Source of the DNA: Bacteroidales bacterium
Lineage (GTDB): Bacteria > Bacteroidota > Bacteroidia > Bacteroidales > Tenuifilaceae
Direction: 5' to 3'
DNA: 64,000 nucleotides
Assembly: GCA_011045955.1 (NCBI GenBank)
Contig: DSBV01000095.1
Location: forward strand, 285-64,284
The translations under genes and the position numbers were made by a program. Shown here piece by piece: positions 21,628 to 29,052 of the stretch; position 1 is the stretch's first letter, and the number at the start of each line of letters is the position of its first letter. Below the pieces are notes generated by a model. It saw only the letters and a program-made list of their open reading frames with translations, was not told where the DNA came from and made no database searches.

Positions 21628-23928
21628 ATGGTAAAGAGGATATATATCCTTTTATCCTTTATGTTTGTGGGTATTGGCAAGGGCTACGCTCAACCTCCCA
21701 CTGGGCAATGGCGCGATTACTTTGCCTTTAACGATGCCCGTGTGCTTAGCATTAGCCCTTCAAAGCTTTACTGTGCAGCAGCGAATGGCTATTTTACCTA
21801 CGATAAAGGTAACGGGGAGCTCAACAAGTACTCAACGGTTAACGGTTTAAGTGAGGTTGATATTACTGCAGTATCAGCAATACCGCAAAAGCATATAACG
21901 TTTGTTGGATACAAATCTGGCAATATTGATGTAGTAAATGAAAACACCCAGCGAGTTGTTAGTTTACCATACATTAAGGATAAACCCATGCTGGGCAGCA
22001 AGTGCATTAACCATTTTTACTACTATAATTCATTGGTATACGTATCTACCGATTTTGGTATAGTGGTAATTGACCCCGATAGGCTTGAGGTTAGGGATAC
22101 TTACTTTATTGTTGAAAATGCTGGCACCATAAAGGTTAACAGGTTAGTTGCCTGGAATGGAAAGTTTTGGGCAGCCACCAGTCAGGGCGTTTACAGCGCA
22201 AATATAAACGACCCTTTGCTAATCAGCTATGAACGTTGGAGCAGGGAGCAATTTTTTAATCACCCTGCAGCAGAATGCCTTGGAGTTACTGCTGATGAAA
22301 CCTACTTGCTGGCTTTAGAAAAGGTTAGCGGTAACGATATTCTATGGATGAATTCCGGTTTAGGCTGGGTTGAGGTTGATAGACCTTTTGATGAAACCCT
22401 TGGAGTATCCATAGGCTTTCAGAAAATAGTTGCCTTTAGCAGTAATGCCATTCAGAAATATAGCTTGCAGGGCGAGAAGTTAGAACTTATTAGCAGTTAC
22501 CTTTTTGGTGGCACTCCCAAAATTGCCGATTGTATACTGCTTGAAAACAATGCTTTGGCTGTTGCCGATGAATTTAATGGTTTAGTGATTCTCTCACCCG
22601 ATAGCCATAGCGTTCTTTCCCCCATGGGGCCATTCAACAATAAGTTTTTCCATATCGATGCAAGCGCTAACATGGTAGTGGCTGCCTCAGGGGCATACGA
22701 TGCTGCTTTCGGAAATTTCTGGAATCCATTTATTGCACACACCTTTTCCGAGGGCAGATGGTCGTACTATGCTGATTGGTTTAATCACGATGCGGTTAGG
22801 GTGAAGGCAGATCCCCGAAACCCGAATGCTTTTTTTGTTGCAAGCTGGGGCGGAGGCCTGTATAAACTTAATAGTGGAACCCTAGCCGAGCACTATAACC
22901 CCGATAACAGCACCCTGCAGAGTGTGTTTCCCGGACAGCCATACTGTAGAATAGCCGGTATGGATATTGACGCCAAGGGAAACCTTTGGGTTGCTAATTC
23001 TGAGGTTCCAAATCCTATATCGGTGCTAACGGCACAGGGGGTATGGAAGTCGTTTCCGTATTACACCGCAATTGGAACGTCAAGGATAATTTCGCTTACT
23101 GTTTCGCCAAATGGGATAATTTGGTTAGCTCTGGCTCGCGATAATGGATTGTTCGCCCTAAACCCAGGAAACGATGTGGAGAGCGCAAACGATGATATCT
23201 ACCTTAAGTTTCGTCCTCGCGATGCTAATGGAAATACATTTCCCAATGAGATTACAGCGCTTGCTTTTGACAGGGATGGCTATTTGTGGTTGGGTACCAA
23301 CCAGGGTGTTCTGGTGAGCTACAACCCGCAAAGGGTGTTACAGGGCGAAACTCGTTTCCAAAAAATAAAAATACCCGATGTGGTGGAAGGCCTGGCAGTT
23401 TACCTTTTGGAGACCGAGGAGATTACCTGCGTTGATGTTGATGGAGGCAACCGCAAGTGGTTTGGAACAGCTAAATCGGGGGTTTACCTTTTTTCGGCTG
23501 ATGGAACCAAACAGATTCATCATTTTAACACCAAGAATAGTCCTCTGCCATCAAACGCCATTTTAAGTGTTAAAGCGCATCCGCTTACCGGTGAGGTGTT
23601 TATTGCCACCGATAAGGGGTTGGTTGCCTACCGTAGCGATGCCAGCCAGCCGGCTAAGACATTTGATAAGGTATATGTCTTTCCCAATCCGGTTCGCCCT
23701 AACTATGCCGGTCTTATCACCATAGCCGGACTTATGGACAATAGCGTGGTAAAAATTACCGATATCGCAGGCAATATTGTTTATGAGACCCGCTCAAACG
23801 GAGGTATAGCAACTTGGGATGGAAAAAATAGGAACGGGCAGAGAGCTGCCACAGGCGTTTACCTAGTTTTCTGTTCCGACTCCCGTGGTGAGCAAGCTGC
23901 GGTTACCAAACTTCTTTTTGTTAAATAG
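21628..23928 (+). CDS. porZ: T9SS component PorZ (two beta-propellers plus T9SS CTD)
   Basis: GQWRDYF start, repeated propeller motifs (DAKGNLWVAN, DRDGYLWLGT, VDGGNRKWFGT), CTD VYVFPNPVR...WDGKN...GVYLVF...KLLFVK. Confidence 0.85.
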   Translation: MVKRIYILLSFMFVGIGKGYAQPPTGQWRDYFAFNDARVLSISPSKLYCAAANGYFTYDKGNGELNKYSTVNGLSEVDITAVSAIPQKHITFVGYKSGNIDVVNENTQRVVSLPYIKDKPMLGSKCINHFYYYNSLVYVSTDFGIVVIDPDRLEVRDTYFIVENAGTIKVNRLVAWNGKFWAATSQGVYSANINDPLLISYERWSREQFFNHPAAECLGVTADETYLLALEKVSGNDILWMNSGLGWVEVDRPFDETLGVSIGFQKIVAFSSNAIQKYSLQGEKLELISSYLFGGTPKIADCILLENNALAVADEFNGLVILSPDSHSVLSPMGPFNNKFFHIDASANMVVAASGAYDAAFGNFWNPFIAHTFSEGRWSYYADWFNHDAVRVKADPRNPNAFFVASWGGGLYKLNSGTLAEHYNPDNSTLQSVFPGQPYCRIAGMDIDAKGNLWVANSEVPNPISVLTAQGVWKSFPYYTAIGTSRIISLTVSPNGIIWLALARDNGLFALNPGNDVESANDDIYLKFRPRDANGNTFPNEITALAFDRDGYLWLGTNQGVLVSYNPQRVLQGETRFQKIKIPDVVEGLAVYLLETEEITCVDVDGGNRKWFGTAKSGVYLFSADGTKQIHHFNTKNSPLPSNAILSVKAHPLTGEVFIATDKGLVAYRSDASQPAKTFDKVYVFPNPVRPNYAGLITIAGLMDNSVVKITDIAGNIVYETRSNGGIATWDGKNRNGQRAATGVYLVFCSDSRGEQAAVTKLLFVK

Positions 23929-23932
23929 GCAC

Positions 23933-24661
23933 ATGCTACAGCACAACAGGGTAATTGTACTTAGGACTGTAAGGTTTAAAGAGAATAGCCTGATAGTTAG
24001 CTGTTACGCACAAAAGCATGGGCGTATCACTCTGTTGGTAAATAGCGCTTTCCCTAAGGGGAAAAAAATAGGGTTGAATGTTTACTTTCAGCCCCTATCC
24101 ATTCTCGATGTGGTTTACTACTATCGTCCTAACGCTGAGATGTACAGGGTAAAAGAGGTTACCCCTACATATGCATACACCAGCCTACACCTAAACCCCA
24201 TTAAGCTCACAATTACTATTTTTCTCAGCGAGTTAATTTACCGTACAGTTAGAGAACAGGAGACAAATCAGCATCTCTTCGCCTTTATTGAAAATTCAGT
24301 ACAAATGCTCGATAACCTCAATACCGGTGTAGCAAACTTTCATCTGATTTTTATGGTGCAGCTTTCGCGGTATTTAGGGTTTTACCCATTGAATCGATGG
24401 AGCCCGGCAGAACCCTACTTCGACATTAAAAACGGTGATTTTTGTGGGGTAGAACCCGCTCACGGTTTTGTGCTTGAGAAGCAAACCAGCAAGTTACTGA
24501 GTAATTTGATAAATACTCCCATGCACAATCCTGAAAAGCTGAGTTTAAATCAAAATCAGCGGCAAGTACTTATTGAGGCCGTTGCATCGTTTTATCGCTT
24601 TCACCTTGGTTCCGGAATACGTTTCAGAACCTTACCAATACTTATCCAGCTATTCGAATAG
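23933..24661 (+). CDS. recO: DNA repair protein RecO
   Basis: IVLRTVRFKENSLIV, FQPLSIL, LSRYLGFYP, FDIKNGDF; ATG at 23933. Confidence 0.88.
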   Translation: MLQHNRVIVLRTVRFKENSLIVSCYAQKHGRITLLVNSAFPKGKKIGLNVYFQPLSILDVVYYYRPNAEMYRVKEVTPTYAYTSLHLNPIKLTITIFLSELIYRTVREQETNQHLFAFIENSVQMLDNLNTGVANFHLIFMVQLSRYLGFYPLNRWSPAEPYFDIKNGDFCGVEPAHGFVLEKQTSKLLSNLINTPMHNPEKLSLNQNQRQVLIEAVASFYRFHLGSGIRFRTLPILIQLFE

Positions 24662-24758
24662 TTGCTTTCATCAAGTAAACCTTGCATTCTATCAAAATTG
24701 ATATGATAATTGAAAAACTATTTGTAATTTGTAAAATACAATGATTGTTTGAAAAACT

Positions 24759-25883
24759 ATGACCCAAAAGATAGGAGAAATATCAACATTGAGTGACGAT
24801 AGCTTGCAAAAGCTAATTAAGGAAAGTGGGGCCATCAATATGACATCGCTTTTACCTAGCGAAAAGGGATTTCAAGAGTTTTTCGATAGTAATGTTGACA
24901 TATACAACTTTGGTATGGACTTTCTTGAAAACATCAATCCCTACCAAAAACTCTCGAATTATACCCTTAAAAAGTACTTTAGGGCAATCAACCCTGAAAC
25001 AGAAATTGCCTTTGTAGGTGGAGTAAATCTGGCTGTATTTTTAGCCATTGCGTCGAGCGTTAAGGATGGTGATAGTGTAATTGTGTTCGAGCCCTTTACT
25101 TCTAACCTAAAAGCCGCGGTTGAACTTTGTGGTGCTCGCCCGGTATATATTCCGTTAAAAGGTCCCGAGTTTAAAATTGATTGGTGCGAGGTTCAGCGTG
25201 CCATTAACGCTACAACTAAACTCATGGTTATATCATCGCCTCACCTTTTAACCGGACAAGCTTTAACCGCTGAGGACTATGAAGAACTGCAAAGATTAAT
25301 CAACGGTACCAAAATCAAGCTCGTTATCAACGAGTCGATGGTCGAGCTGGGTTATAAAAACCATGAAGGAACCAGCGTGAATTTCTATCCGAGGCTATGC
25401 CAGGTAACTTACCGAGTGGGTTCGCTTAACATTCCGGTTGCTTTAGCCGATAGTGAAATAGCATACTGTATTGCACCCGAGCAGTTAATGGCTACATATA
25501 GGAATATCCATTCAGCAATTGCCGCTAATCCTAACCTTAGCCGAGCCGAAGATTATATCAATATTCTGAGCGTCGAGATAGAAGGGCATATGCTAGCCGA
25601 TTTTTTGGAAGAGAACTATAAAAAACTACTGGAAGCACTAAAGGAAAGCAAATTTCAACCCATTAGGCAAACGGCTGGGTATATGGTAATGATTGGCTAC
25701 AAGAATTATGCCGATATCCGTGATGTTGAAATGGTGGAAAAGTTGATTGTTGAAAAAGGCGTTGGCCTTTTGCCGCTTTCATGGTTCTACCACGACAGGC
25801 AGTGCCATCGATATGTGGCAATGAATATCACATTACCGCAAAATGAATTTAGAGAGGCCATAGACCGATTGGCGAGCCTGTAA
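24759..25883 (+). CDS. Fold-type I aminotransferase homolog (YbdL-like) lacking catalytic residues; probable pseudoenzyme
   Basis: Colinear with class I/II aminotransferases (AINMT, GDSVIVFEP, GARPVYIPL, YCIAP, GVGLLPLSWF), but SFGK is SLNI, DEVY is NESM, HNP is HLL, and the substrate Arg is Ala. Confidence 0.8.
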   Translation: MTQKIGEISTLSDDSLQKLIKESGAINMTSLLPSEKGFQEFFDSNVDIYNFGMDFLENINPYQKLSNYTLKKYFRAINPETEIAFVGGVNLAVFLAIASSVKDGDSVIVFEPFTSNLKAAVELCGARPVYIPLKGPEFKIDWCEVQRAINATTKLMVISSPHLLTGQALTAEDYEELQRLINGTKIKLVINESMVELGYKNHEGTSVNFYPRLCQVTYRVGSLNIPVALADSEIAYCIAPEQLMATYRNIHSAIAANPNLSRAEDYINILSVEIEGHMLADFLEENYKKLLEALKESKFQPIRQTAGYMVMIGYKNYADIRDVEMVEKLIVEKGVGLLPLSWFYHDRQCHRYVAMNITLPQNEFREAIDRLASL

Positions 25884-25974: not shown

Positions 25975-26823
25975 TTAAGGTAATTTAAACCTCTCGCCAG
26001 GTAAAAGGACATCAATTTTAAGTCCTTTGGCCCCAAGCAGCGAATTGCTAGGGTTCAGTTTGGCTTTGGACGCATCAACCAAAATCACTTGGCCTACACC
26101 GCAAACAGTTACACTATCGCCTGAAATGAGCAGTGCAGTAGATTCGTCAATACCGGCACAAAGATAATCAGGATTTTCAATGCTTACAGCAATAAGCCTG
26201 TTCAGTCGTTCACGTTTTACAAAGTGTTGGTCAACAATTACCTTTTTTACTAATCCTAGCCCATCGGTTATCTCAATATTTTTGGGAACAATATGGCTAT
26301 ACCTATCATCATCGGGGAATTTGTGTTGTCGGCCACTAATCATTAGCTTGCTCATTACTGCAGCGCCAGCGCTGGTACCAGCAATAACTGCTCCGTTATG
26401 GTAAGCGTAAACTATAGTTTCCTGTATAGTGGTGCCACCCACAATATCCATAAACTTTTTTTGATCGCCACCAGAGATATAAATCAGCGAAGCCTTTTTA
26501 AGGGTGTCAACCCATCACTGTTTAATACTATCGCCCTTTTGAAAAATAATTGATAGGGTATTATTAATGCCCCGGTCAGTAAACTGCTTGGTGGCGTAGT
26601 AAGCAGCGCTATCGGGCTCTTCGCTTGCCATGGGAAGCACAACGAGGTATTTCTTTTCCTTCAGGTTGGCAAGATTAACGATTTGCTTAACCATTGCATC
26701 GGGGCGCTTCCCTCTTCCAATAATATAGAGTTTACCTTTTCTAGCATTTTGCTGAGTGCATTTCAGGAACGAAAGCGACACTATACCAAGTAGTAGGTAT
26801 AAAAGGATGTTTTTTTCTGTCAT
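25975..26823 (-). pseudogene. Secreted cyanophycinase (peptidase S51) interrupted by one in-frame TGA
   Basis: The two track ORFs are in the same frame: ...GDSIKQ*WVDTLKKASLIYISGGDQ...; stop at 26515-26517. Catalytic GTSAG, DQHF and IDES motifs are retained. N-terminal signal peptide. Confidence 0.85.
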
Positions 26824-27025
26824 ATTCAAAGTTTTTTAATAATACAATTAAACAGGGGAATACACTTAATCGCAAAAAAATTATTTTTCTAAATGTTGTT
26901 AGAACAGAATTAATAAGATGATTTAAAATTCAAGTAGCCATCCAGGCTAAAAAAGAATCAACCCATTAAGAGATAGCTAAAAGTTGGGTGTATGTATAGT
27001 AACCTAACTTTAAAATTTAATGCCT

Positions 27026-29052
27026 ATGAAGTCGAAAATTTTACTCACCACTCTGTTTGTAGCCATAGTAGGGGCAACTTTTGCTCAGCCGCTTTACTGG
27101 CGCGAGGATCTGTACGATCCACAAAAACTTCAACCATAACTCGCGATAATTCTGTTAAAAGCGAGGGTGATTATTCACTCAAGTATGTTTTTACCGACGA
27201 CGGAACACCCTACTTTATATGCGACACCTTTGCAGTGACAGGAGGCGCAACCTATGAATTATCAATAGATTACCTGGATAACGATCCAGCCTGTAAAATC
27301 TCAGCGAGGTTGTGGTTCTTCTCCGCCCCAAACACCTCATACCTTGAGCGCCAAACCAGCAAAACAACAACCGACTCGGGCGACTGGCAAACCATAACTA
27401 TCTCGGGAACAGTTCCAACAACTGCAACCCTTGCATATGTGGACATACGCATGAGTACCGATGCAGCCTGGGCGGGTAGTGGTACATTCTGGGCCGATAA
27501 TGCCCGTTACTTTGAGAATGGTGGTACTACAAACCTGATAAAGAATGGAAGTTTTGAGGAGTGGGAAGCTCCAACCGAACCCGAATTCTTAACCTATAAG
27601 TTTGAGGGTTTAAATCCGGTAGTTACGGGTGTTATTGATAAAACTGCCAAAACCGTTGAGGCAACAGTCCCTTATGCTACTGAAGTTACAAGCCTTGTAG
27701 CATCGTTTACCACCAATGGTGCTACAGTAAAGGTTAACGATGTGGTTCAGGAAAGTGGTGTTACTCCAAACGACTTTTCGTCCCCTGTAACCTATACGCT
27801 TGAACTTGGCTCAGTGATTAACAACTGGGTTGTAACGGTAAATAAAGTTGCTCCTGCTACCAGAAAAGATATTCTTTCGTTCAAATTCGAAGGGCTTACA
27901 CCTCCTGTTACCGGTGTTATTAATGCTGCTGAGCACAAGGTTACCGCCGAGGTTCCGTTCTCAACCGATTTAACAGCCCTTGTGCCAACCATTACCGTAT
28001 CACAGTATGCTACCATATCGCCTGCAAGTGGTGAGGCTCAAAATTTCACAAACCCTGTTATCTATACCGTAACAGCTCAGGATGGTTCAACACAGGATTG
28101 GATAGTAACCGTAACCAAGGCTGCTGAGGGTCGAACCACTTTGCTTTTTGAGGATTTTGAAAATAAAGTATTAATTCCTTCCGGGTGGGTACTGATTAAT
28201 GGCGATGGCTATACTTAAGCACCAGGCGAAGAGCGTTGGCAAGATAGCGCCTGGGTGGCTGCAACAACCAATCGTCAGGAGTTAAAAGAAACCCAGGTTG
28301 CAATGGCTTCATCGTACACCAGCGATATGCCTATGGATGGCAAGGCATACGACTGGATGATTTTACCTAAGGTAGATTTGGGTAATAATACTACCATTGC
28401 ATGGCAGGCCATGTCAACCACAACCTCGGGCAACTATCCCGATGATTACATGGTAGTAATTGCTCCCGCAGTGGATGGTGTTAATCCTACCATTTGTTAA
28501 TTTAAAACAGAAGGCAATATATTGCTTGAGGTTAAGCCGGAGAGCTGGTCGTAGTATGTTGGGCGTCCTGGCCAGGGTTTGGCTACCTGCTCAATCAACT
28601 TGCGTAATGCAAAAACAGCAAGTGCTCCCGATGGTTGGTTCAACCGTCCGGTTTGGATTGCTTTTGTACTGATTACCGACCTTTATGTAAATCCCGATAC
28701 CGGAATTCCCAACAGTTCCCCCGGTGGTTCAAACCTTGCGGTTGATAATATCCATATATACAACGATGTTCTTAGCGGAATTAGCGATAATACTAAGAAC
28801 ATGCTTAATACCCTTGTTTACCCCAACCCAGCTTTCGAAAAAGCAACAATTCTCATTCCCACTCAACTGGGAGGAATGGTTGAAATTTTTGTAACCGATA
28901 TTGTAGGGCGAATGGTTTACAGCGTTTCCATTAACGCTACCGAAAATCAAACCCGACTAAATTTTGAAACAAATAACTGGGGTGCTGGAATTTACATGGT
29001 TAAAACCACTTATCGTGACACAACCGGTATTAATAAGCTAGTTGTTAGGTAG
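27026..29052 (+). pseudogene. T9SS-secreted multidomain protein (CBM-like, two DUF5018/Ig-like repeats, cleaved-adhesin-like domain, CTD), disrupted
   Basis: Signal peptide MKSKILLTTLFVAIVGATFA-Q in frame 2, a frameshift near the A5 run at about 27123-27127, then one frame with stops at 28216-18 (TAA), 28498-500 (TAA) and 28552-54 (TAG). CTD LVYPNPA...GIYMVK...KLVVR. Confidence 0.85.

Follow-up and report, generated by a model that had tools for sequence, protein, structure and literature searches.

Introduction

Pseudoenzymes are well studied among kinases and proteases. Free-standing, full-length proteins of the aspartate aminotransferase (AAT) fold that are catalytically dead are, to our knowledge, hardly documented in bacteria. 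In the ColD/E1 PMP-dependent dehydratases, His stands in place of the catalytic Lys. The protein described here, which is encoded in a 64,000-nucleotide stretch of DNA from a member of the Tenuifilaceae (the whole stretch analysed, in the following called the window), departs from this enzyme type with its conserved His and otherwise retained ligands, since Ile occupies the Lys position and Asp and Asn are lost as well.

A natural fold-type I homolog without catalytic Lys, in its case functional, is Ser4 of Serratia sp. ATCC 39006, which is truncated, encoded beside the active Ser5 and works in a heterotetramer (PMC11726168). Our protein resembles Ser4 in the missing Lys; however, neither an adjacent or closely related partner gene nor truncated termini are found. 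Non-metabolic reuse of the AAT fold is seen in the sensor domains of MocR, GabR and PdxR, where Lys and PLP are kept and the domain is fused to a winged helix (PMC5320631, PMC6522883). Here, both the GntR winged-helix and the PLP-binding Lys are absent and no extra domain is present. Two further proteins have been retained for a supporting role, plant PDX1.2, a dead B6-related homolog mentioned in PMC6522883, and the N-terminal module of C. elegans CBS-1, which does not bind PLP (PMC3316156). Both differ from our case in fold and lineage, and both act alongside an active paralog or domain, of which none is evident at this locus.

The closest relative with a solved structure, by sequence as well as by fold and with equal length and domain order, is E. 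coli YbdL (PDB 1u08), a methionine aminotransferase of the KAT/glutamine transaminase K subgroup. In sister genera, the homologs in the corresponding genomic slot have the catalytic residues of YbdL apart from a Tyr to Phe exchange. In contrast, the protein encoded in the window has all cofactor and substrate ligands replaced apart from the phosphate-ligand Ser (S222), and judged by these residues it cannot be the same enzyme.

Results

Fold and active-site residues of the homolog

The features of the locus are collected in Table 1. The reading frame of the homolog is open from ATG to TAA, as had been stated in the original prediction of a full-length 374-aa frame without stops or frameshifts, and on the opposite strand reading is interrupted by many stops. 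As checks, this prediction had named an alignment with PF00155 and the comparison of a structural model with YbdL, and both gave a match. PF00155 (aminotransferase class I/II) aligns to residues 68-371 (E 2.2e-22, 80 bits versus a cut-off of 19.7) and is the only domain found, with DegT appearing as an overlapping weak match and without any DNA-binding domain. YbdL is the closest solved relative by sequence (E 1.1e-30). The best NCBIfam models are two 'methionine aminotransferase' subfamilies, NF006569 and NF009079, with scores below their curated cut-offs (173 bits versus 420 and 142 bits versus 481). An AlphaFold2 model, for which 27 homologs served as input, reached a mean pLDDT of 88.9 and a pTM of 0.90, with low confidence at residues 9-11 and 50-56 only, both within the degenerate N-terminal arm. 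In Foldseek the best match of this model was 1u08 YbdL (TM 0.87, E 2e-33), followed by kynurenine aminotransferases. Since the model is confident and YbdL ranks at the top in Foldseek, the scaffold is predicted to be kept, and the residues at the former active site indicate that the chemistry is gone.

Table 1 Features of the locus (nucleotide positions in the window) and replaced residues of the homolog (numbering of the 374-aa protein)
Feature	Position	Strand	Observation
porZ (T9SS PorZ beta-propeller protein)	21628-23928	+	PF21544; first gene of the porZ-recO-X trio
recO (RecO_N + RecO_C, Pfam)	23885-24661	+	directly upstream of the homolog
Spacer from recO to the homolog, 97 nt	24662-24758	+	conserved within the genus
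Palindrome ATCAA-AA-TTGAT	24691-24702		kept in five species of the genus; candidate operator
Sigma-70-like match	24710-24737		promoter-like; no better than shuffles
YbdL-like fold-type I aminotransferase homolog, 374 aa, intact	24759-25883	+	sequence, alignments, AlphaFold2, Foldseek, dN/dS
Ring-stacking Tyr to Thr	T114		beyond the residues listed in the original prediction
YbdL PHNP to PHLL	L163		in place of the O3'-binding Asn
YbdL DEVY to NESM	N191, M194		N191 in place of the pyridinium-N Asp; M194 in place of the O3'-binding Tyr
YbdL SFGK to SLNI	I225		in place of the Schiff-base Lys
YbdL GWK to DSE	E233		in place of the phosphate-binding Lys/Arg
YbdL alpha-carboxylate Arg to Ala	A354		
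Peptidase S51 (cyanophycinase-like), interrupted	25975-26829	-	in-frame TGA 26515-26517
T9SS cargo gene (DUF5018 + Por_Secre_tail), pseudogene	26992-29052	+	TAA 28216, TAA 28498, TAG 28552

Residues were mapped by a HMMER alignment to YbdL, by MAFFT with 44 homologs and by direct indexing, and all three agree. Each of the replacements listed in the original prediction (L163, N191, M194, I225, E233 and A354) was reproduced by alignments and indexing. Beyond these, the ring-stacking Tyr is replaced and the N-terminal xYAPxxG motif, whose Tyr serves as a ligand for the phosphate in the partner subunit, is gone. The protein thus belongs to the PF00155 fold-type I family as a homolog by sequence and fold, and it lacks what characterizes a fold-type I PLP aminotransferase as an enzyme, namely the Lys of SxxK and the ring, phosphate and carboxylate ligands. 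With Asp, Asn, Tyr, phosphate Lys/Arg and carboxylate Arg gone, PLP chemistry by this protein appears very unlikely. By homology mapping, K118 is the sole clade-specific invariant Lys near the former pocket. A search for clade-specific motifs that might define a new active site left Q178 as the only position passing a strict filter; the sequence FYHD was dismissed as a clade motif, as it is also present in canonical Bacteroidota enzymes.

Conservation and loss of the gene within Tenuifilaceae

The source genome is a metagenome-assembled genome of 2.77 Mb with 96% completeness. The closest cultured relative with the same type of protein is Tenuifilum thalassicum (WP_173076410.1, complete genome), from which the window is assigned to a Tenuifilum-like genus of this family in the Bacteroidales. 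Within the Tenuifilaceae, the homolog was found in 39 of the 57 species genomes, and none of the 39 copies carries a stop or frameshift. Of the 8 genomes from the genus of the window (Tenuifilum-like, g1), 6 carry it. These six species genomes and further metagenome relatives share the same substitutions, the same frame and the same length.

The gene is maintained by purifying selection and is not decaying. Pairwise estimates of dN/dS, the form in which all values are given here, lie between 0.06 and 0.14 (NG86) or 0.07 and 0.20 (YN00) within the genus. For the unsaturated pairs at dS 0.3-0.6, values of 0.10-0.14 (NG86) and 0.14-0.20 (YN00) were obtained, and for pairs at dS 1-1.8 values of 0.06-0.10. 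Clades of the family with canonical residues range from 0.045 to 0.11, so that the values of the genus are somewhat higher. The protein accordingly combines descent from active enzymes and loss of the catalytic residues with an intact frame under purifying selection across species, the combination that characterizes a pseudoenzyme. Loss of the active site with the scaffold kept had been taken in the original prediction to point to selection for a non-catalytic role, which the intact frame and dN/dS of 0.06-0.20 support; orthologs sharing the substitutions at dN/dS below 1, which it had proposed to look for, exist in the six g1 genomes over the same range. It had further regarded normal orthologs together with neutral decay of this copy as speaking against such a role. 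The first of these is found in part, since slot homologs of sister genera are canonical, but neutral decay is not, given these values.

In some lineages the whole gene is missing from its place. In G039, a genome of the same genus with 99% completeness, porZ and recO are followed by about 640 bp and then by the S51 gene, with the homolog absent and without a remnant detectable by tblastn at E values up to 10. The genera g2, g11 and g13 likewise keep porZ-recO without the gene. In G041 the match to recO is missing too, which renders absence of the gene there uninformative. Because it is absent from G039 and from g2, g11 and g13, the protein is dispensable in some lineages. We additionally observed an in-frame TAG in the recO of a g11 genome without the aminotransferase homolog (L035/L039, G044:C61:41275-42021).

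Degeneration within the porZ-recO-X slot

At the 30 loci of the family that were examined, recO lies directly upstream on the same strand in every case, and porZ precedes recO in 29. Since the same slot behind recO is occupied in all 30 loci, the copies of the family are most simply read as positional orthologs. For recO of the window itself, the listed start (GTG 23885) overlaps the end of porZ; the 242-aa call in the sister species corresponds to ATG 23933, which is probably the true start.

Residue states in this slot differ by genus. In g3, g6, g7 and g12, Asn, Asp, Ser, Lys, Lys and Arg are retained and only Tyr is exchanged for Phe. Genus g8 retains Lys, with Asn and/or Arg altered. In g9, g5, g10 and g4, Lys is replaced by H, Q, N or L with most of the remaining ligands retained; of these replacements, His is confined to a few g9 relatives. 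In g1, all are replaced. On a maximum-likelihood tree, Lys was lost a single time, at the root of a clade with 22 rows (support 100/97), with the caution that L018 forms a long branch adjoining this clade. The stem branch leading to g1 amounts to 0.95 substitutions per site, and the branches inside the genus are short. Occupying the same slot as the canonical homologs of sister genera, the active site has therefore degenerated in place, with loss of Lys first and of all other ligands later on the long stem branch. The Tenuifilum lineage would have passed through a burst of change, by relaxation or adaptation, before settling under constraint.

Within the dead clade, positions that were once catalytic drift among the deeper members (I/L/R, N/D, L/P, M/L/S and A/V/G). 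Only one of eight of these positions is invariant, compared to 34% of all positions, and this drift fits sites that are out of use.

A recO-linked clade in Bacteroidales

In a full HMMER search over 1.84 billion representatives, proteins without Lys were overrepresented among the closest neighbours by sequence; they make up 18 of 105 full-length matches and are found mostly among the top 25. A wider sample comprised 80 loci from named genomes, and 46 of these have recO as the adjoining upstream gene on the same strand. Taxa with this linkage include the Marinilabiliaceae (Carboxylicivirga, Marinilabilia, Anaerophaga, Saccharicrinis and Thermophagus), the Prolixibacteraceae and the Tenuifilaceae. 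The order recO-X is kept in 46 of the 46 linked wider loci and porZ-recO-X in 20, with differing outer neighbours. Lys is absent from 30 of these 46 loci, and many of the 16 with Lys are without the carboxylate Arg. The way in which Lys was replaced is specific to the lineage, with Glu paired with a change of GWK to GWQ in Marinilabiliaceae (loci L059-L099), with Pro, Thr or Ala paired with a change of GWK to GWG in Prolixibacteraceae (loci L090-L134), and with Ile, Met or His at the Lys position of other linked loci. Across the clade, H, Q, N, L, I, R, E, P, T, A and M occur at this position. The forms from Marinilabiliaceae and Prolixibacteraceae without Lys retain Asp, Asn, Ser and Arg, and in these forms binding of a B6 vitamer or an amino acid may persist in the absence of turnover.

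The remaining 34 loci show no upstream match to recO, and 32 of them are fully canonical. It should be noted that for three of the 34 (L107, L109 and L110) the upstream sequence is too short to judge linkage; with these set aside, 30 of 31 are fully canonical (YNDYSKKR), the exception being an aberrant row of 305 aa (L089). In ten unlinked loci the upstream genes are unrelated to recO. In a tree of 119 proteins, the recO-linked proteins group into a single clade with 82 rows (SH-aLRT 98) that branches from within the canonical Bacteroidota enzymes, with L068 as a linked and canonical protein that nevertheless falls outside. The presence of Lys changes at least five times on this tree, each time within the linked clade; the tree stems from a quick search, and its deep nodes are provisional. 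Independent lineages without Lys display dN/dS of 0.020 (Marinilabilia) and 0.039 (Prolixibacteraceae), with dN at or below 0.12 where dS is saturated. Taking the residue states and the tree together, the recO-linked YbdL-like clade is seen to have given up catalysis repeatedly, with at least five losses of Lys under strong constraint, and the protein of the window marks the extreme of this widespread clade. A description of this clade was not found in full-text literature searches, and public databases label its proteins 'methionine aminotransferase' or 'PLP-dependent enzyme'.

Upstream spacer and downstream pseudogenes

Between recO and the homolog, the spacer sequences of five species of the genus share 79-94% identity, compared to 44-71% identity at synonymous third positions of the reading frame. 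A riboswitch or structured leader was considered and discarded, as the spacer matches no Rfam family and does not fold stably as RNA, and for this reason the spacer is probably promoter or operator DNA.

Downstream of the homolog, the original prediction had described neighbouring pseudogenes with stops, and this holds for both genes, with the TGA in the S51 gene and TAA, TAA and TAG plus a frameshift in the DUF5018 gene. The frameshift of the latter lies just past the signal peptide, and one repeat of about 150 aa is missing in addition. A sister species, with 86% identity in the aminotransferase homolog, has intact copies of both. There, the DUF5018 gene encodes 841 aa and reads CAA, TAC and CAA where the copy in the window has its three stops. 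The position of the S51 stop is TGG (Trp) in the sister species and in G039. As a separate observation, the S51 copy of G039 shows an apparent frameshift near its 3' end, and the S51 gene may be decaying across the genus. Recoding of stop codons was rejected as an explanation, as all three stop types and a frameshift occur and the long reading frames of the window end in TAA, TAG and TGA. Cytosine deamination was rejected as well, with one of the stops requiring a C-to-A change and another one two changes. A tally of in-frame stop pairs over the whole genome was set aside as too coarse, being inflated by adjacent genes in a common frame. Since these neighbours carry stops in the same genome, real decay is visible there, and it is absent from the frame of the aminotransferase homolog. 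Outside the window, the same genome contains another PF00155 homolog with in-frame TAG and TAA, an aminotransferase pseudogene (G000:C35:28690-29202).

Discussion

In this study, we explored an intact aminotransferase homolog of a Tenuifilum-like bacterium, from which the active site has disappeared. We propose that it is a pseudoenzyme, folded and probably dimeric, which would neither bind PLP nor transaminate and which would be held under purifying selection for a cofactor-independent role. From the alignments, the structural model and the comparison across species, we assign this reading a probability of roughly 0.8. In the mechanism we envisage, the clade would already have had a second, non-catalytic function by the time it could do without catalysis, and the lineage of the window would have retained only this function. 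The function kept in the Tenuifilum lineage would then need no cofactor, and the function common to the clade no Lys. Most likely, the conserved scaffold would bind a protein partner or a ligand and would be expressed from its own upstream region by recO.

The opposite view, in which the gene is a relic on its way out that has lost its function and persists by chance or by a weak constraint unrelated to the protein, could draw on its disappearance from G039 and several genera, on the adjoining pseudogenes and on the long stem branch. However, dN/dS far under 1 at unsaturated divergence (dS 0.4-1.4), 39 family copies without stop or frameshift, the frame and length common to the genus and the conserved upstream spacer largely refute it, all the more as the neighbouring pseudogenes gained four stops and a frameshift in the same period, and we consider it highly improbable. 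If the gene is functional, the protein could be the inactive partner in a hetero-oligomer with an active class I aminotransferase, tuning or completing the site of the latter as Ser4 does for Ser5. Fold-type I active sites sit at the dimer interface, a natural partner subunit without Lys is on record (PMC11726168), and the genome encodes about nine other PF00155 proteins. The best match among the other proteins of the genome is, however, only 25% identical (E 5.8e-5), so that no close paralog exists, and no aminotransferase gene is adjacent in about 76 recO-linked loci. Ser4 is moreover truncated at both ends, whereas our protein is of full length, and the N-terminal arm that would reach into the partner site is without its Tyr motif and modelled at low confidence. 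For an inactive subunit paired with an active YbdL paralog, which the original prediction had offered among possible roles, there is thus neither a close nor an adjacent candidate, and we regard partnership of this kind as improbable. The protein may be a regulator or scaffold, the other roles named there.

It is somewhat less improbable, but still unlikely, that the protein remains an enzyme or a binder of a cofactor or ligand, either by a Lys-independent reaction or with a pocket rebuilt around K118 and the acidic D231/E233. The pocket-lining loops are strongly conserved in the genus, with SPHLLTGQ and K118 invariant, a few g9 relatives carry His for Lys, and relatives from other genera that lack Lys have retained Asp, Asn, Ser and Arg, with very strong constraint on these proteins. 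On the other hand, the pyridinium Asp, the O3' Asn and Tyr, the stacking Tyr, the phosphate Lys/Arg, the partner Tyr and the carboxylate Arg are all lost together, the residue at the Lys position is free to vary within the clade, which argues against a new catalytic role, and conservation at the former catalytic positions does not exceed the average, with the one invariant position in eight standing against 34% overall.

Returning to the cofactor-independent pseudoenzyme, its persistent adjacency to recO suggests that a functional tie to RecO or to B6 or amino-acid status is possible. In E. coli, recO adjoins pdxJ within the rnc-era-recO-pdxJ-acpS operon, which may be coincidence. A more specific proposal would be that the recO-linked clade of Bacteroidales carries an undescribed non-catalytic function of the AAT fold that is coupled to recO, for instance by modulating recombinational repair through RecO or by reporting B6 or amino-acid status to it. 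We hold this proposal, which the gene neighbourhood suggests, to be doubtful. If it were true, it would explain why Lys was lost at least five times with the protein and its place beside recO retained.

The occupants of one slot provide an unusually clean natural series, from canonical residues over loss of Lys to loss of all ligands. Together with the at least five independent losses of Lys under strong constraint, this series argues for a second function of the scaffold. The clade has cultured members, with Tenuifilum thalassicum, Marinilabilia salmonicolor, Anaerophaga thermohalophila and Carboxylicivirga species, in which the proposed role can be tested directly. The naming of these proteins as active enzymes in databases will mislead metabolic reconstructions of these Bacteroidales.
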